NCBI GenBank assembly: GCA_963790305.1
Contig: CAWBOC010000010.1
Span: 352,001-416,000 of the forward strand
Direction: 5' to 3'
Length of the DNA stretch: 64,000 bases
Origin: an uncultured Gemmatimonadaceae bacterium
GTDB taxonomy: Bacteria > Gemmatimonadota > Gemmatimonadetes > Gemmatimonadales > Gemmatimonadaceae
Shown: piece after piece, positions 6,353-30,863 of the stretch
How positions within the stretch are numbered: position 1 is the first letter of the stretch
How the letters are laid out: each line of letters opens with the position of its first letter
Program-made: the position numbers and the translations under genes
The notes under the pieces: generated by a model
Seen by the model: only the letters and a program-made list of their open reading frames with translations
Told to the model about the DNA's origin: nothing
Database searches by the model: none

Positions 6353-7600
6353 ATGTCCCTTCGCCGTCTTTTCCCCTGCCTGCTTCTCGCGGTCACTGCC
6401 TGCGCCGATTCGCCCCTGGGTCTGGGAGGCACCGCGCCCGACTCGCTCACGGTGCTTCCGCGAGCGCTGAGCCAGGATGAGCAGCAGACCATCGCCTCGA
6501 GCAACCGGTTCGCGTTCGACCTCTTCCGCAGCATCAACACCCGGTTTGCGGACACGAACGTCTTCATCTCTCCGCTGAGCGCGTCGTTCGCACTTGGAAT
6601 GACGATGGAGGGCGCCGAGGGAGAGACCTTCCAGGGGATGTCGGACGCGCTGCGCATTCTGGAGAGCGATCGGTCGCGCATCAACGCCGCCTATCGAGAC
6701 CTGATCGAGCTGCTGCTCGACCTCGACCCGTCGGTGGACATGCGCATCGCGAACGCGATCTGGTATCGCAATGGCTTTCCGATCCATCAGACATTCCTCG
6801 ACACGGTGGAACACTACTTCGATGCGCGCGTTGCCGGACTGGATTTCGACGACCCTGCGAGCGTGACGCGCATCAACGCCTGGGCCGACACCGCCACGGC
6901 GGGCAAGATTCCCGAAGTGCTCGACAATATCGGCGCCGAGATCGTGATGCTCCTCATGAACGCCATCTACTTCAAGGGAAGCTGGCGCTCGCAGTTCGAT
7001 CCAGGGAATACCCACAACGCGCCGTTCGCGACCGAGCGTGGCACGTCCTACTCAGCGCGGATGATGCACCTCGAGACGCAGGACGTGGCGCTCGCGTCGC
7101 TGAATGGGGTGCAAGCGGTCGATCTTCCTTACGGTCGCGCGGCATTTACCATGACCGCGATCCTTCCCCCAGCCGGCACCGATGTCGATGTCTTCATCGA
7201 ATCGCTCACTCAGCCACGGTGGGACGCGATCGTCGGCGCGCTGCACCAGGCGAAAGCCGACGTCTACCTCCCGAAATTCACCATGAAGTGGGAGGACACG
7301 CTCAATAGCGACTTGATCTCGATGGGGATGGAGAGCGCCTTCTGCGAGGGGTGTGCCGATTTCACGCGCATGTCTCCAGTCGGCGATGCGCTGTTCATCG
7401 ACTTCGTGAAGCAGAACACGTTCGTGAACGTCAACGAGGAGGGGACGGAAGCCGCCGCGGTCACGACGGTCGGCGTTGGCGTCACCAGCCTGCCGCCCTC
7501 GATCCGCTTCGACCGGCCGTTTGTGTTCGTAATTCGTGAGCGTTTGACGGGCACCATTCTGTTCATGGGTAAGGTCGCCGTTCCCATTAGCGAGAGCTAA
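6353..7600 (+). CDS. Serpin family protein, predicted lipoprotein
   Basis: NVFISPLS, NAIYFKGSW, hinge EEGTEAAAVT, FDRPFVFVI..TGTILFMGKV; lipobox VTAC; RBS gagagga before ATG 6353. Confidence 0.93.
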   Translation: MSLRRLFPCLLLAVTACADSPLGLGGTAPDSLTVLPRALSQDEQQTIASSNRFAFDLFRSINTRFADTNVFISPLSASFALGMTMEGAEGETFQGMSDALRILESDRSRINAAYRDLIELLLDLDPSVDMRIANAIWYRNGFPIHQTFLDTVEHYFDARVAGLDFDDPASVTRINAWADTATAGKIPEVLDNIGAEIVMLLMNAIYFKGSWRSQFDPGNTHNAPFATERGTSYSARMMHLETQDVALASLNGVQAVDLPYGRAAFTMTAILPPAGTDVDVFIESLTQPRWDAIVGALHQAKADVYLPKFTMKWEDTLNSDLISMGMESAFCEGCADFTRMSPVGDALFIDFVKQNTFVNVNEEGTEAAAVTTVGVGVTSLPPSIRFDRPFVFVIRERLTGTILFMGKVAVPISES

Positions 7601-24152: not shown

Positions 24153-24614
24153 CTACGTCACGTTGGCCTTTACGATCTGATCATTTTGCTTGATCTGCTT
24201 CATCACGTCGAGGCCCTTGGTGATGCGGCCGAAGACGGTGTGCACGCCGTCGAGGTGCTTGGCGTTCTGCTCGCTGAGCACCATGAAGAACTGGCTGCCA
24301 CCGGTGTCCTTCCCGGCGTGGGCCATCGACAGTGCGCCAACGACGTGCTTTTGATTCCCGCCCTTGGTCTCGCACTTGATCGTCCATCCGGGACCACCCG
24401 TGCCGACAGGGCCTTTGGCGTGCTCGCCGCCTTTCGAGTAGGGATCGCCGCCCTGGACGACGAAATCCGGAATCACGCGATGGAACTTCGTCCCATCATA
24501 GAACCCGCTGTTGGCGAGCTTCTCGAAGTTCGCCACCGTGCTCGGGGCGTCCTTGTCATACAGTTCCGCGGTGATCGTCCCGCGGTTCGTTTCGATGGTA
24601 GCAGTTTTAGGCAT
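24153..24614 (-). CDS. Cyclophilin-type peptidyl-prolyl cis-trans isomerase
   Basis: [49 protein letters not shown]. Confidence 0.97.
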
Positions 24615-24638
24615 GTCGTGAAGATAGTTGGAGGGCTA

Positions 24639-24717
24639 AGGGTGTCGAGGGTGTCGAGGTCGTCGAGGTGATCGAGGAGAGGCGACGACGTTCCCTCCAT
24701 CACCTCGACGACCTCGG
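24639..24717. repeat. Family C inverted nonamer-repeat hairpin overlapping the nth stop
   Basis: gtgtcgagggtgtcgaggtcgtcgaggtgat ... atcacctcgacgacctcgg. Confidence 0.8.
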
Positions 24718-25438
24718 CGTTTCGACAGGAACCACGAGCGACGACGGACACAAGTCCCACAACGGACACTCTTCGCACAAGCGGACGTCGAGCGACGCAG
24801 ATCGACCGGCCGTGAAAGATCAGCAGGTGCGAGAACAACGTCCACTTCTCTCGCGGCACGATCTTCACCAGATCCTGCTCGATTTTCACTGCGTCGGTCT
24901 GACGCGTGAGGCCCAGACGAAACGACACCCGCGTGACGTGCGTGTCGACCACGATCCCCTCGTTCTGCCCGAATGCGTTGCCGAGGACGACGTTCGCCGT
25001 CTTGCGACCGACGCCCGGGAGATGCGTGAGCTCGTCCATCGTACGCGGGATCTCGCCGCGGTGCTTGTCCACGACCGCCCGAGCCATGCCCACGAGACTC
25101 TTCGTCTTGTTGCGGAAGAACCCCGTGCTCTTGATGCGGTTCTCCAGGTCCTCCGTCTCCGCCTCGGACAACGCGGCCGCGTCGGGGAAGCGCGCGAACA
25201 GCTCCGGCGTCACCATGTTGACGCGCACGTCCGTGCACTGGGCGGACAGAATCGTCGCGACGAGGAGCTCGTAGGGATTCCGGTAGTCGAGCGAGCACTT
25301 CGCGTCCGGGTACGTCTCCTCGAGCCGGCGGATGTACTCGAGCGCGACATCGCGCCCGACCTGCCTCGGCCTCTTGGGAAGCGCCTTACGAGTGACGAAG
25401 GGCGGTTGTGGAGGTGCTGCGCTCGCGCGCGGAGTCAT
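24700..25438 (-). CDS. nth: Endonuclease III (apparent +1 indel near 24779)
   Basis: LLVATILSAQCTD, HhH LPGVGRKTANVV, VDTHV. Removing one base restores the FeS motif C-x6-C-x2-C-x5-C (CVARRPLCEECPLWDLC). ATGA overlap with polX. Confidence 0.93.
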
Positions 25439-27168
25439 GCGCGGGCGCGGCGCGACCTGGCGCGCTCGACGATGGCGTCGGCGTCCCACGTGTTGAGCAC
25501 ATCGGAGGGCTCGAGCCAGCCCTTCCGCGCGATGCCGACGCCGATCTCGGTGACATCCAGCCCCGCCGTCGAGTGCGCATCGGGACCGATTGCGACCGTG
25601 ACGCCTCGCTGCTTGGCGGCCTGACAGGTCTGCCAGTCGATGTCGAGGCGATGCGGGTCGGCATTCAGCTCGACGACGACGCCCAGCTCGGCCGCCTTGT
25701 CGAGCACCGCCTCCATGTCGATCGCGTACGGCTCACGCGTCAGCAGCAAACGCCCGGTCGGGTGGCCGAGAATCGTGAGGTGCGGGTTGTCGAGCGCCTT
25801 GAGGACGCGATCGGTCATTGCCGCCCGATCCATCCCGAATCGCGAGTGCACCGACCCGATGACGAAGTCGAAGCGCTCGAGGATCTCGTCGTCGTAATCG
25901 ACGCGCCCGTCGGCGAGAATGTCGGCCTCGATGCCTTTGAGGATCTTGATTCCATCGAGCGTCTCGTTGATGCGATCGATCTCCTCGTGCTGCGCGACGA
26001 GCGCTTCGCGCGACACCCCGCCGGCGTAGAACGCCGACTCGGAGTGATCGGAGATGCCGATGTAGCTCCACCCGCGCGCCTTCGCCGCCGCCGCCATCTC
26101 GGCGATCGTCGCCTTGCCGTCCGAGTACTGCGAGTGGCAGTGGAGGACACCCTTGATGTCGGCATAGGCGATGAGCGACGGGAGCGCGCGTCGTGAGGCG
26201 GCGTCCAGCTCACCCCGGCCTTCGCGCAGCTCCGGCTCGATGTAGGGCAGCCCGAGCGCGTCGTAGAACGCGACTTCGTCGGGAATCGGAAGGACGTTGC
26301 CGCTGGCGTCCCGCAGCTCATCCTCGGCGAGTGTGAAGCCGCGCTCCGACGCGTGCGCGCGAAGCTCGGTCGTGTGCGACTCGCTTCCCGTGGCGCGCCA
26401 GAGTGCGATGCCGAAGCGCTGCGGCTCCACGCAATGCAGATCGAGTACGGTCCCGTCCACATAACGAATGCAGAGTGATCGTCCCCCCGCGCCGACCACA
26501 TCGCGCACGCCGCCGGCGCGGGCGAACGAGGCGGCGACCGAGGCCGGCGTCTCGCGGCAGGCAGCGACGATGTCGACGTCGCGGACGGTCTCGCGGCGCC
26601 GACGAATCGAGCCCGCGACGAGCGCGCGCTCGACCTCGGGGTGGGCTTCGACCATCGCGAGGAGGCGTCGCGCCTCGATGACCGCGTGCGGGTAGAGGAT
26701 GTAGGCGTTCGTCGACCGCAGGTATCCGATCCCCTTGAGGAGCTTCTCGGCGGTCTTGGGTCCGAAGCCCTTGAGCTTCGCCAGGCGCCCGTCGCGCGCG
26801 GCTTCCTCGAGCTCCTGAACGGTCGAGATGCCGAGCCCTTCGTGGAGCGTGTGGATCTTCGAGATGCCGAGTCCGGGGACGCGGAGCATCTCGAGGAGGC
26901 CTTCCGGCGTCTGCTCGCGGAGCTGGTCGAAGTAGCGCGACTCGCCCGTCTCGCACAGGTCGGCGAGGACGCCGAGCGTGGCCGGCCCGATCCCTTTGAG
27001 CTTGGCGAGGGAGCCATCGCGGTGCATGGGGCAGAGGTCGTCGGTGACGACCTCGAGGACGGCCGAGGCCGCCGAGCGGTATGCGCGCGCCTTGAAGCGG
27101 TTCTCCCCGCTGAGCTCGAGGAGGTCGCTGATCTGGGTGAGGACGTGGGCGGCGGTGCGGGGATCCAT
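25435..27168 (-). CDS. polX: DNA polymerase X / PHP 3'-5' exonuclease
   Basis: ENRFKARAY, GSIRRRRETVRDVD, ATGS, PELREG; PHP motifs HCHSQYSDG, DHS, HPTGR, DAH. Confidence 0.95.
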   Translation of the reverse strand: MDPRTAAHVLTQISDLLELSGENRFKARAYRSAASAVLEVVTDDLCPMHRDGSLAKLKGIGPATLGVLADLCETGESRYFDQLREQTPEGLLEMLRVPGLGISKIHTLHEGLGISTVQELEEAARDGRLAKLKGFGPKTAEKLLKGIGYLRSTNAYILYPHAVIEARRLLAMVEAHPEVERALVAGSIRRRRETVRDVDIVAACRETPASVAASFARAGGVRDVVGAGGRSLCIRYVDGTVLDLHCVEPQRFGIALWRATGSESHTTELRAHASERGFTLAEDELRDASGNVLPIPDEVAFYDALGLPYIEPELREGRGELDAASRRALPSLIAYADIKGVLHCHSQYSDGKATIAEMAAAAKARGWSYIGISDHSESAFYAGGVSREALVAQHEEIDRINETLDGIKILKGIEADILADGRVDYDDEILERFDFVIGSVHSRFGMDRAAMTDRVLKALDNPHLTILGHPTGRLLLTREPYAIDMEAVLDKAAELGVVVELNADPHRLDIDWQTCQAAKQRGVTVAIGPDAHSTAGLDVTEIGVGIARKGWLEPSDVLNTWDADAIVERARSRRARA

Positions 27169-27175
27169 GGCCGGA

Positions 27176-27218
27176 AATATAGCCCTCCTTGACTTCGGTG
27201 ATTTCTTCGGGCTACTCT
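27176..27218. promoter_or_regulatory. Putative divergent sigma70 promoters between polX and the Rad52-like gene
   Basis: Plus strand TTGACT (27189) -18 nt- TACTCT (27213); minus strand TATATT (27181-27176) ending 7 nt before the polX ATG. Confidence 0.45.
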
Positions 27219-27243: not shown

Positions 27244-27822
27244 GTGCCAAAATCAGACCTGCCGATCGGCGGGGAGTACGCACCCGTGGCCGATCGGATC
27301 GCGCTCTTCTACGAGCGCTTCCCGGCGGGACGGATCATCACCCAGCTCACCATGCACAACCAGCGCGAGGTGGTGTTCCGCGCCAGCGTGTATCGGACGG
27401 AGAAGTCGCGCACTCCGGCGGCGACGGGGTGGGCGAGCGAGCGGATCGGCGATGGGGACATCAACACCGTCGCCTGCCTCGAGAATACGGAGACGTCGGC
27501 GATCGGGCGGGCGCTGGCGAATCTGGGGTTCACGGCGTCGAAGAACCGGCCGAGCCTCGAGGAGATGGAGAAGGCGGCGAGGGCCCGTACGCGGATGGTG
27601 CTCGCCGATCGGTATCAGGGGCCAGCGAGCGATACGCTCGAGGACGTGCTGACGCTGGTTCGAAGCGCTGAGCGATATGGTCTCCGCACTCGCAGGGCGA
27701 CCTGGCTTCGGACCCGGATCCGGCGTGGCCTGTTCACACCCGCTCAGTTGGAGCGCCTCTCCCGCACACTCCGTCGCTGGGTTCGAGCTGACATGGTTCA
27801 GGTCGTCCAATCGCGCTCGTAG
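27244..27822 (+). CDS. Rad52/Rad22-like (phage-type) single-strand annealing protein, putative
   Basis: YAPVADRIALFYERFPAGRI...ENTETSAIGRALANLGF resembles the conserved ETSA(I/V)GRAL...G helix of Rad52-fold phage proteins; RBS gaggagg before GTG. Confidence 0.65.
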   Translation: MPKSDLPIGGEYAPVADRIALFYERFPAGRIITQLTMHNQREVVFRASVYRTEKSRTPAATGWASERIGDGDINTVACLENTETSAIGRALANLGFTASKNRPSLEEMEKAARARTRMVLADRYQGPASDTLEDVLTLVRSAERYGLRTRRATWLRTRIRRGLFTPAQLERLSRTLRRWVRADMVQVVQSRS

Positions 27823-27960
27823 ACGAGTACGCGTGGTCGCCGGCGGGGCGTGTCACCACCTCGCATCTAACAGGCGTCCCGCGGATGCGTAGCCAGACGA
27901 GCCAGTCGACGCCGACAAAGCACGACACGGGGATGAGGATGACGAACGGGAGGCGGTGGG

Positions 27961-28732
27961 GTGCTGCGAGCGTACAGAGAGGCGAGCGACGACGCGGTGG
28001 TTCGCGCGATGCGCGCCGGTGAGGAGCCAGCGATGCGCGAGTTCATCGAGAGGTATCAAACTCTCGTGTTGGTGCAGGCGCGCCGTTTTCGAGTTCCGGA
28101 CGACGAGCGTCAACACTGGACGGCCGAGGCGCTGTACGATGTGGCGCTCTCGCTGATCCGTTCAACGCGTCCGGTGCCGACATCGCTGCCCGGATATCTG
28201 ATCGCGGCCTGTCGTCGAAAAGCCATGATGAGTCAGCGCGCTCGCCGTTCCCGCATGGTGCGAGAGGCGGCCGTTGCGGGCAACGTGGGCGGAGAGCGGG
28301 TCATTGTTGGGACGTGTTCCGAAGACAGCCTTCGCCAGGCGCGCGGTCCAGCGCGCGAGGAGTCGTCGCTGCCCTTGGTCCTCGAGCGCTTGGTGGACGC
28401 GCTCGACGATCGGCTGGATACGAGCGAGAGAACGCTACTCTCGTGGATCGGGGCAACGGGTTCCCTATAGCACCATGGCCACCTGGCTCGAGATCAGCCG
28501 CTCGGCCGTGATCAAGCGCGCCATGCGACTGCGAGTTCGATTGCTTGGCGTGGCGATGGAGTTCGGCCAGACACTCGATACGGCGGACCGGCAGGAGTTG
28601 GTGCGGTTCTTTCGGCGCACCGGCGCGCTCGACGCCATTGCCCTGGCCCGCCTGGAGAACAGTGAGCACGCGGTGGATTCCCGCCGATCGTCGACAGTTT
28701 CCGTACGGGGCGTACCTCAGGAGGACGGCTAG
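27961..28732 (+). CDS. Divergent ECF-type sigma factor with C-terminal extension (apparent +1 G at 28450-28453)
   Basis: Region 2-like SDDAVVRAMRAGEEPAMREFIERYQ...SLPGYLIAACRR; after correction, region 4-like LDTSERTLLSWIGQRVPYSTMATWLEISRSAVIKRAMRLRVRL; RBS gggagg. Confidence 0.7.
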
Positions 28733-28734
28733 CC

Positions 28735-29466
28735 ATGGACGACCGCGATGCAGTGTTTCAGCGCGAGCAGCTCGACAGACTGGAATCCGCGAGCGACCCA
28801 TTGATCGACGTCATCGGATATCTGGAATCCCTTCGACCGATCTCACCCGCGTTTACCGATGAGCGGTTCGTCACCTGGGTCGCGCAAGAAGGGCGCATGC
28901 CTGCAAGCGCCGCTGAGGCGCTTCCACCTGAGGCGGTCGCCACCCTCGCGAGAAGGATCCGCCTGACGGCGGCGGCCGAGCAATCGGGCATGTACCTGGT
29001 GGATCAGCTTCCCGAGCAGGTGGCTGTGCGCGCTGGGTGGCCGGTGAGCTCCGCCATTGTCGAGCTCGCGAGAAATCGTCAGGCAGCTGTGGTCGACCTC
29101 GCCATCGCGGCCGGCACGGGACGCGAGCTCTGGGATGCGGAGTGCGAGAGTGCAGTGGCGGTGCCGGAGGTGCTTCCGCGAGGTGAGTACGTCGCGCTCA
29201 CCGTGAGCGGTGACAGCATGGAGCCGCTGCTGCACTCCGGAGATCTCGTGCTCGTCAAGCGCAGTGGAGAGCTCAAGTCCGGCGCCATTGTCGTGATGCG
29301 GGACACCGATGCGGGATACGTCGTGAAGAAGGTGGGTCGAATCGAGACCCGTTCGGTGGAATTGCTCTCGCTGAATCCGGCCTACGGCCGCCGGCGGGTT
29401 CGACGGACGCGCAGCTCGGTGCTTGGAACGGTCTTGTTACGATGGTGCCAACACGGTGGGACCTGA
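28735..29466 (+). CDS. S24 family (LexA/UmuD/CI-type) autopeptidase-domain protein with a non-HTH N-terminus
   Basis: Cleavage-site-like IAAG, catalytic Ser in VSGDSMEP, Lys in YVVKKV, LLSLNPAY; ATG 2 nt after the sigma stop, with ggagg RBS. Confidence 0.88.
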   Translation: MDDRDAVFQREQLDRLESASDPLIDVIGYLESLRPISPAFTDERFVTWVAQEGRMPASAAEALPPEAVATLARRIRLTAAAEQSGMYLVDQLPEQVAVRAGWPVSSAIVELARNRQAAVVDLAIAAGTGRELWDAECESAVAVPEVLPRGEYVALTVSGDSMEPLLHSGDLVLVKRSGELKSGAIVVMRDTDAGYVVKKVGRIETRSVELLSLNPAYGRRRVRRTRSSVLGTVLLRWCQHGGT

Positions 29467-29509
29467 CGGAGTCACCAGGCCGCATTCTCTGAAGGCAGGA
29501 GGTGCCCTT

Positions 29510-30043
29510 GTGATCCAGCAGAGCATACCAAGCACTTCGTTCTTCACGAATGATGTTGCCGGCCTCATCAAGGTTCTGGTGACCATCGTTGTCCCGACCA
29601 CGGCCGCTATTGTCGCCAGTGTGTGGAAGTTCATGCGCGGGGACCTGCAGGCGGCTGATGCTCGTCTCCATGAGGCTGTCGAGCGCGGAGACGCAGGAAT
29701 CCGTCGTGACATCGACGGGCTCGGGACGCGCGTCGGCGCGTTCGAAACCCGCCAGACCGAGCTCGAGGGCCAGGTACGAGGGATGAGCGATCTCGTTCAG
29801 GCCCAGGCACGCGAGCTCGCGCTGGTCGCGTCGGCTCATGGGACGATCGATCGCCGGCTCATGGAATTGCGAGACGTGAACGAAGGCTTGAGGGCGTCGC
29901 TCACGGCCGCGATCCACTCTGCCGGGCGCGAGTCGACGCATGAAATCGCGCAAGTGCGTGAGCGCCTGGCGATGATCGAAAAGGTGGCGGCGCTAGTCGA
30001 GCGTGGCGTCATGAGGCATGGCACGCGCGATCGGTCGCGATGA
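29510..30043 (+). CDS. Hypothetical protein with N-terminal TM and long coiled coil
   Basis: RBS aggagg before GTG 29510; hydrophobic LIKVLVTIVVPTTAAIVASVW followed by heptad-rich helix. Confidence 0.7.
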   Translation: MIQQSIPSTSFFTNDVAGLIKVLVTIVVPTTAAIVASVWKFMRGDLQAADARLHEAVERGDAGIRRDIDGLGTRVGAFETRQTELEGQVRGMSDLVQAQARELALVASAHGTIDRRLMELRDVNEGLRASLTAAIHSAGRESTHEIAQVRERLAMIEKVAALVERGVMRHGTRDRSR

Positions 30044-30057
30044 TGTCGCGTGCGGGA

Positions 30058-30841
30058 CTATCCGTGCTCGACGACGGTGTGCGCCAGGTGCGTCTGCCCC
30101 TCGGCGCTCGACCCATCGGCGGCGCGCAGCGAATCGTGATGGACATCAAGGTGATGGAGAGCCCGAATGACGAGCGCCTCGAGCTCGCTCGTCGTCGCGA
30201 GCGTGCGATACCCCTTCTTCTCTCCACCGGGAATTGCGCTCGCGAACGGATGCCCTTCGTCTCGCCACGGCCGATGCGCGATCTCGTGCACCTCCGTCGG
30301 CGTGAGATCGGTGCGATAGGACACGAGCGACACACCCGGCCGATCCGCCCGCAAGCCTAACACCAGCTGCAATCCTGAGATGGGCGCCGGCGCCTGGCGC
30401 CGGCTCCGTGTCATCGACGACAACGAAGCACCCATCGACCGGCTCGTAAGGCGACTCCGCCGTCACCCGCGACCACAGGCGCTGATACGGAAACTGGAGA
30501 TAGCACGCGGGCGGTCCCGCGAACGTCCAGTTGCCGACGTCGTACTCCTGCCTCCGTCAGCTCGCTTCGTCACCGATCTCCGAGAAGGAATACAGGCGAC
30601 AACCAAACTCCCAGAACTGATAGCCCTGATACACGAACTCGGCGTACTCCTCCATCGCGTCGGGATCGGCGTCATCGCTCACGAAGTGCTCGAGCGCCGC
30701 ACCCACGTGGCCGAGCAGCACGAACTGATCGCGCCGACGCGTGTCGGTGCCACGCTGCGTCGCCTCGGCGCGGATCGCGGGGAAGGCGACCGCCTCGAGC
30801 GACTCGAGAAACATTTCGTATGGGGTGATTCGCGCGCTCAT
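30058..30841 (-). CDS. Hypothetical protein broken by several apparent indels
   Basis: Three ORF pieces (30557-30847, 30146-30466, 30058-30435) join into one reading MSARITPYE...YLQFPYQRLW...QLVLGLRADRPG...VVEHG. Confidence 0.6.
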
Positions 30842-30863
30842 GATCATTGAGCGCGGGCAGGGT

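Follow-up and report, generated by a model that had tools for sequence, protein, structure and literature searches.

A gene for a LexA-type S24 autopeptidase directly follows a gene for an ECF-like sigma factor in the genome of an uncultured soil Gemmatimonadaceae bacterium, which raises the question of whether the S24 protein is an anti-sigma factor that frees its sigma factor by self-cleavage. An earlier note, made without database searches, had proposed such a role. The source genome comprises 4.3 Mb in 13 contigs, and the operon lies in a window of 64,000 nucleotides (assembly GCA_963790305.1, contig CAWBOC010000010.1, positions 352,001 to 416,000) to which all coordinates refer unless another locus is named.

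Organization of the operon

The operon is a plus-strand unit that consists of a promoter with an embedded box, a 192-aa gene, the sigma-like gene, the S24 gene, and a 177-aa gene (Table 1). The box, the 192-aa gene, and a second promoter-like element before the sigma-like gene had escaped the earlier note. The 192-aa gene is common in related loci yet optional, and where it is missing the box stands directly before the sigma factor gene (L048, L052, L066, L075, L085, and L148). Its product matches a phage-associated family (PHROGs, E 8e-26; Atlas PF27148, score 0.97) and has no Pfam or PDB match. A resemblance to Rad52/Sak single-strand annealing proteins is tentative: the gene's profile aligns with the Rad52-family protein of this genome at E 0.68 over 14 columns. 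The 177-aa gene contains no Pfam family above cut-off and recurs only in L021 and L022 among the loci listed.

A PolX-PHP DNA repair gene (25435–27168, minus strand) is transcribed divergently, its start being 26 bases away from the box, such that it may share an operator with the operon; this neighbor is present in only 4 loci. A RES-domain gene is located upstream of the operon in 8 loci (L061:2957–3772 and relatives).

Table 1. Coordinates of the operon and its sequence elements in the window.
Feature	Coordinates	Strand	Remarks
Operon promoter, sigma70-type: TTGACT 27189–27194 ... TACTCT 27213–27218	27189–27218	+	Likely SOS/LexA box in spacer
First gene, 192 aa, phage-associated family Slr1353_N / PHROG 11717, optional	27244–27822	+	PHROGs, Atlas
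Second element, TGTCAC-N6-GCATCT type, likely the sigma factor's own promoter	27851–27880	+	Family element
ECF-like sigma factor of ~256 aa: sigma2, sigma4, and a helical C-terminal extension	27961–28732	+	Frame broken at 28449
Extra C, most likely an assembly error	28449	+	Run X2 contig; insertion relative to L016, L022
S24 protein, N-terminal fragment, residues 1–126; predicted anti-sigma domain ~17–81	28735–29112	+	Ends Ile-Ala-Ala at predicted cut site
S24 protein, LexA-type autopeptidase domain, from Gly127	29113–29466	+	Ser161 codon 29215, Lys198 codon 29326
Second copy of sigma-linked element, before cargo gene	29470–29490	+	One extra base at 29485; paired copies in relatives
Cargo gene, 177 aa, N-terminal hydrophobic stretch + coiled-coil-like body	29510–30043	+	Variable position in family

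Conservation of the gene pair

A search with an alignment of the S24 protein, using a selection pattern that includes the cut site, yields 80 loci, 79 of them with Gemmatimonadota titles and one unidentified. The sigma factor gene is directly upstream of the S24 gene in 72 of these, and the remaining eight S24 loci begin within ~120 bases of a contig end. When family loci are selected by the sigma factor, the next gene is the S24 gene in 19 of 21; the exceptions are a divergent sigma factor (L151) and a third copy in a genome that has two complete cassettes (L162). Seven weaker matches in the sigma search are other ECF sigma factors without an S24 gene. The pairing is thus conserved when approached from either gene. 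The two genes overlap in 50 of 63 pairs, 20 of them by four bases, with start codons chosen by rule.

Across 300 genomes drawn from the phylum, 19 contain a family-level sigma match, always with the same gene order (8 candidates scored per genome). Close relatives keep the same chromosomal neighborhood, and the 44 viral loci recovered with the S24 profile include generic S24 matches only and no member of the family.

The sigma factor and its interrupted reading frame

A profile of 66 intact relatives of the sigma factor matches ECF sigma factors across sigma2 and sigma4 (CnrH, E 3e-7; RpoE, SigE, and SigH), and the domain layout is that of ECF (group 4) sigma factors, with sigma2 and sigma4 and without sigma1.1 and sigma3. 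Sigma70_r4_2 is matched by 26 members and Sigma70_r2 by 8. The modeled fold matches region 2 of sigmaE (Z 11.2, rmsd 3.8, 103 aligned); a Foldseek search gives nothing with E < 0.001, its top rows nonetheless being sigma factors. The family is large, with 380 clusters at 50% identity (E < 1e-30).

The sigma factor had been described as lacking the usual DAED motif, and this is true of the family, with only the third-position Asp kept (82% of the 66 relatives; consensus at the site D 59%, V 50%, L 94%, D 24%, D 82%). It had also been credited with a C-terminal extension of ~60 aa; the extension is present and its two helices at 207–233 are confidently modeled, but its length is closer to 50 aa.

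Among the 68 relatives whose sigma factor gene is not truncated at a contig end, 66 encode it in a single open frame, while L063 and L091 also have split genes; a tblastn search with an intact relative joins the two halves in the window at residue 169. Run X2 supplies a 413-base contig that agrees with the region at 0 mismatches and does not contain base 28449; its overlap to the left of this base is 29 bases, below the 31-base bridging rule of the tool, and the run contigs match the operon only in pieces. Runs X1 and X3, which come from one sample, have contigs that similarly lack base 29485. Private single-base insertions relative to the nearest relatives are found in the window at ~24780, 27172, 27200, 28448, 30370, 30550–30576, and 30845. 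Because relatives read through, a contig without the base exists, and such insertions are numerous, an error of assembly is the most likely source of the frameshift. The earlier note had pointed to the G-run at 28450; an extra base is indeed located there, but it is the C at 28449 preceding the run and not a G. Caution is warranted for other frameshifts found in this assembly. An Endonuclease III-like gene (24473–25489; named by eye) appears to be frameshifted by private insertions of this kind, and a 259-aa gene (30058–30847) is likewise split by them.

The S24 protein

The S24 open reading frame (28735–29466) encodes a 243-aa protein that matches Pfam Peptidase_S24 (E 5e-21) over residues 123–233, and its model resembles the C-domain of Thermotoga LexA (Z 14.6, rmsd 2.4, 123 aligned). 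The Ala-Gly, Ser, and Lys elements are intact, as had been read from the translation, and correspond to Ala126-Gly127, Ser161 (in GDSM), and Lys198 (in VVKK). All are invariant in 15 of 15 sequences of a genome search. Invariance of the cut site in the 80-locus set is built into the search pattern and is not used as evidence; conservation was rechecked in two sets chosen without the cut-site motif, consisting of 103 proteins selected by the N-domain and 17 selected by the sigma factor. Every one of the 103 proteins found by the N-domain profile alone contains [VIA]AA-G and the Ser, as well as the Lys of the dyad (101 by pattern and 2 by eye), and the cut site and dyad are kept in all 17 proteins adjoining sigma matches, some of whose loci recur from the earlier sets. 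PF00717 is present in 71 of 71 family members and in all 103 N-domain-selected proteins, and the N-domain occurs on no scaffold other than S24 among 8000 candidates scored. By analogy with characterized S24 proteins, RecA*-stimulated self-cleavage at Ala126-Gly127 is likely.

The protein scores 28 bits against the NCBIfam lexA model (cut-off 111) and 28 bits against NF007621 (UmuD; cut-off 110), and the sources label these proteins as LexA or phage repressor. Two canonical LexA genes are present elsewhere in this genome (G000:C9:139122 and C6:334283), as are recA and clpX.

The earlier description of the N-terminus as a helical segment of ~120 aa without an HTH agrees with the model, in which the N-terminal ~115 aa form helices at residues 3–33, 43–54, and 64–83 followed by three short strands; modeled alone, this domain has low confidence (pLDDT 55–74). 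No HTH or other Pfam family is found in the N-domain of any of 71 members, and it has no PHROG match, no PDB sequence match below E 1.2, and no sequence match to the class I anti-sigma domain (ASDI) of RseA, ChrR, and RsiW or to solved anti-sigma domains in Pfam and PDB. Hits to the protease domain filled the fold searches made with the whole S24 model, so that these inform on that domain and not on the N-domain. The leader of 126 residues is, as had been remarked, much longer than that of UmuD (~24), and no umuC is nearby, the single IMS-family (UmuC/DinB) match of the genome being on another contig.

A predicted complex of the sigma factor and the N-domain

The complex was modeled with sigma factor residues 1–236 and partner residues 1–124 of an intact relative (L022, S24 protein 83% identical), using our own alignments. 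It scores 0.67 (runs 0.72, 0.66, and 0.67) with a best control of 0.01. Of 157 solved complexes 116 attain the mark applied, as do 2 of 215 mismatched pairs; both counts are rough given the use of our own alignments. Contacts are shared between the runs to at least 78%, and the pLDDT of the partner is at least 62. In the predicted L022 complex, partner residues 17–81 contact sigma2 (17–92), sigma4 (137–198), and the extension (216–223), and the conserved partner residues Leu23, Phe45, Trp48, Ala50, and Arg54 are in or beside the listed interface.

The model supports binding of the sigma factor by the N-domain. Because many sigma/anti-sigma complexes have been solved, the pose may partly reflect likeness to these; the N-domain itself has no sequence relative among solved sigma/anti-sigma structures. 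With the predicted complex passing against clean controls, no HTH found, and the gene pair conserved with a frameshift that is most likely artefactual, each of the three refuting conditions named in the earlier note turns out in favor, and the proposal that the N-domain is an anti-sigma factor and that self-cleavage frees the sigma factor gains support.

A likely SOS box

The spacer of the operon promoter contains the box TTCGG-N6-TTCGG (27194–27210). The window's copy has one extra base (N7) and is missed by a profile scan; the extra base is a window-specific insertion at ~27200 relative to L022 and L024 and is probably a further assembly error. Of 51 loci, 49 have the box before their first gene, flanked by a TTG on one side and a TAnnnT hexamer on the other; the two misses are a reversed box (L036) and a variant.

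A genome-wide scan with the box profile gives 16 sites, of which the top five and eight in all precede repair or topology genes. The top five are upstream of imuA-like, radical-SAM (same cluster), Rad52-family, gyrB, and ruvB genes (the latter two named by eye), and three further sites precede recA and lexA (two); the other eight are before unrelated genes. The lexA gene at C6 has two copies of the box upstream, and that at C9 has no profile match. The box is also upstream of recA in five of five genomes without a detected cassette, and a doubled box precedes canonical lexA in another family (L017, L018, L020, and L103). It is thus a probable operator common to lexA and recA and overlaps the promoter, as expected of an SOS regulon. 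Because the same box precedes lexA, recA, and other repair genes, it is likely the SOS/LexA box; the alternative that it is an element of the cassette itself was rejected on account of its presence before recA in the genomes without a detected cassette. Its position ahead of the operon lends indirect support to the link with RecA, which the earlier note had only assumed.

The box resembles the GTTC-N7-GTTC repeat described for Alphaproteobacteria (PMC3323433). A literature search on Gemmatimonadota returned no published LexA box for the phylum, for which a candidate is now available. The genome's two strongest boxes are in a cluster (L164; G000:C7:246900–252500) of radical SAM, radical SAM-HhH, imuA-like, imuB-like, and PHP (dnaE2-like) genes.

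A sigma-linked element and its cargo genes

A profile trained on the regions upstream of the sigma factor gene places a second element, TGTMAC-N6-GGYGTC, in 58 of 65 of them with scores exceeding the 99th percentile of shuffles. Applied to the regions downstream of the S24 gene, on which it was not trained, it exceeds the 95th percentile in 26 of 68. In 21 of 54 loci, a downstream 20-mer is identical to the locus's own upstream one at 15 or more of its 20 positions, compared with a cross-locus rate of 2.7%, or ~1% where the sigma factors are <40% identical (kin are not independent); no clear downstream copy is evident in the other 33. Free motif discovery behind the S24 gene did not converge at first; the downstream copy came to light only through the upstream profile. 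In L162 the sigma factor without an S24 neighbor has the element on both sides and keeps its cargo.

The element before the sigma factor gene of the window is the best match in the whole genome, and a scan with a genus profile gives one strong site, the sigma factor's own, with the others mostly inside genes. Six of nine extra pattern matches in five genomes were similarly inside genes and were dropped as chance. The element shows no consistent palindrome or repeat. Its two conserved blocks are 6–8 bases apart, with no conservation further upstream, a geometry unlike the normal -35/-10 layout (about 16–17 bases). In the window, the ribosome site of the cargo gene begins at position 28 of the element. 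The element is a likely candidate for the sigma factor's own promoter. A role as a recombination site is hinted at by the direct repeats flanking the pair and by a fibre-like gene gained or lost together with the element; it ranks low because the copies are inexact and one-directional and are followed by ribosome sites.

Among the frequent followers of the element, a small secreted protein accounts for 14 loci and a large protein family for 11; RHS repeats are found in five of five members tested of the latter. Orphan proteins of 800–1340 aa, one with pectate-lyase-like and LamG matches, likewise have the element before them in three genomes of the genus; these proteins are absent at the same site in the window's genome. 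Large orphan fibre-like genes (L130:6298–10305, L131:10620–14645, and L132) are gained or lost with the element at their 5′ edge. An unannotated secreted protein of ~180 aa with no Pfam match usually stands before the RHS proteins (L044:3093–3656 and relatives).

A proposed regulatory circuit

We consider it rather probable that the operon is LexA-repressed and that the S24 N-domain is an anti-sigma factor cut on RecA* such that the sigma factor is freed. For LexA control, RecA*-stimulated cleavage, degradation, and release we infer the following course, built around a binding step that is predicted by modeling. As suggested by the box, DNA damage would lift LexA and the sigma factor and its partner would be made together. 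The helices of partner residues 17–81 are predicted to insert between sigma2 and sigma4 and would hold the sigma factor inactive. RecA* would then stimulate the cut at Ala126-Gly127 by Ser161/Lys198, in keeping with the chemistry of the family and the intact residues. Since the sigma-binding half would survive the cut as such, a further step is required, in which the sigma-bound fragment, now ending with Ile/Val-Ala-Ala as a ClpXP-type tail, would be degraded by analogy with IrvR, LexA, and RseA. The free sigma factor would transcribe its own gene in a positive feedback, together with a few surface or competition cargo genes. The outcome would be a double lock like that of umuDC, with LexA acting transcriptionally and RecA* post-translationally, so that only lasting damage would fire the sigma factor.

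LexA and RseA have such degrons, that of RseA being a VAA tail. The new Ile/Val-Ala-Ala end also resembles the ALAA tail of SsrA (PMC8767453), and ClpXP performs the final step of RseA removal (PMC7593790). The borrowed step is that of IrvR of Streptococcus mutans and HdiR of Lactococcus lactis, in which the N-fragment survives the S24 cut and stays active until ClpXP removes it via an exposed C-terminal degron (PMC7101444); these differ in being DNA-binding repressors, and IrvR is RecA-independent. Conservation of the xAA tail need not mean a degron and could equally be kept for the cut alone, since xAA is the LexA-type cut site and is also found in both LexAs of this genome.

Alternative readings

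Several other readings accommodate part of these observations. The partner could bind the sigma factor as a helper or off-switch, with the intact form or the product needed in the manner of UmuD′, or be cleaved without release of the sigma factor. The sigma factor is atypical (no DAED, a C-terminal extension, and an odd element geometry), the complex model gives contact and not its sign, and the activation of UmuC by UmuD′ is a precedent; we nonetheless regard this as unlikely, as the predicted interface spans sigma2 and sigma4 in the way that anti-sigma factors trap ECF sigma factors, and as L162 keeps its element and cargo without an S24 neighbor, albeit in a genome with two complete cassettes. 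It is slightly less likely again that the N-domain is an anti-sigma factor whose cleavage is RecA-independent, either as a constitutive timer or by another signal, leaving LexA as the sole damage input. S24 proteins can cleave without RecA, and IrvR has the Ala-Gly site and dyad and does so, but it is described as an exception among LexA-like proteins (PMC7101444), and the gene here belongs to a likely SOS operon at almost all loci, with RecA* present when the protein is made.

Nearly all characterized S24 proteins except UmuD are repressors, the database labels are those of repressors, and the second element is short and operator-like, all of which would suit an unrecognized DNA-binding N-domain that represses the second element in the manner of CI or PrtR while the sigma factor is an activator kept off. 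Against this, no HTH family is seen in 71 members or in PDB, the sigma complex passes, and the element lacks a consistent palindromic or repeated form and is present at L162 without an S24 gene, making a repressor improbable. The window copy could finally be a decaying pseudo-operon with a real frameshift, or a prophage remnant, given the frameshift in the assembly, the phage relatives of the first gene, and the split sigma factor genes of L063 and L091. This is very improbable in view of the matching contig without the extra base, the private insertions in neighboring ordinary genes, the lack of family members among the 44 viral loci, and the chromosomal neighborhood shared by close relatives. 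The LexA-repressed operon with a RecA*-cut anti-sigma factor is thus the reading that we retain.

Relationship to known regulators

The RecA*-cleaved regulators known to us are DNA-binding repressors or UmuD-type polymerase subunits, and the proteolysed anti-sigma factors known to us depend on separate proteases. LexA and lambda CI (MEROPS S24) share the C-domain fold, the Ala-Gly site, the Ser-Lys dyad, and the xAA tail after cleavage; in contrast to these, the S24 partner has no detected winged helix or HTH, and its N-domain is predicted to bind a sigma factor. UmuD (umuDC, mucAB) is likewise an S24 protein without a DNA-binding domain, encoded with the protein that it controls (here in a likely LexA-repressed operon) and subject to the double lock, but the partner here is a sigma factor instead of a Y-family polymerase, and the gene order is sigma factor, then S24. 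RseA and MucA, the partners of sigmaE and AlgU, are encoded directly after the sigma factor gene and resemble the predicted wedge between sigma2 and sigma4. Unlike them, the S24 partner is soluble, with no membrane helix, and contains its own protease instead of relying on DegS/RseP, and its signal would be RecA* and not envelope stress. RsgI and FecR are self-cleaving anti-sigma factors as well, but are membrane proteins cut in an extracytoplasmic domain, and no S24 or SOS link is apparent from titles and abstracts on them.

The nearest known circuit, as far as its description extends, is that of SigN (ZpdN) on plasmid pBS32 of Bacillus subtilis, which has a LexA-repressed housekeeping promoter and an autoregulatory promoter, as proposed here; it is plasmid-borne and from a different phylum, and its abstract names neither an anti-sigma factor nor an S24 partner (bioRxiv 10.1101/624585). 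A sigma factor with an S24 anti-sigma factor was not found in literature searches of titles and abstracts, with most subscription papers and preprint supplements lying outside these. By term search, the main text of the ECF re-classification does not mention S24, LexA, or RecA, and its supplement, among the text searched, names S24 only in the context of ECF02 (PMC7826278). A 2022 review on non-canonical ECF sigma factors is also without these three terms and lists conformational change, partner switch, and mechanosensing as the mechanisms of soluble anti-sigma factors (PMC8999054).

The new components here are the predicted sigma/N-domain complex, the likely SOS box, and the second, locus-specific element; the system as a whole is built from known parts. 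If the proposal is true, DNA damage is wired straight to sigma factor switching, a mechanism is added for soluble anti-sigma factors, and a compact damage-gated expression part becomes available. The pair consists of two small soluble proteins, the cut site is defined, and a promoter candidate exists, so that direct tests in E. coli are feasible. The chances are about even for the fuller picture, in which a soluble anti-sigma factor with an autopeptidase reads the RecA filament directly, the sigma factor drives a second SOS tier of horizontally gained surface or competition genes (RHS, fibre-like), and a short non-canonical element co-evolves with the sigma factor.

Variant loci

Additional features are seen around some copies of the cassette. 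A second S24 match is close to the cassette in G011:C138, and short CPxCW-motif genes are located behind the S24 gene in several loci (L030–L033). In L081, a second open reading frame after the S24 gene (6385–6906; same place as in L015) matches sigma2 and, continuing in the same frame, the beginning of the N-domain, and is either a partial duplicate or a natural sigma2/anti-sigma fusion.
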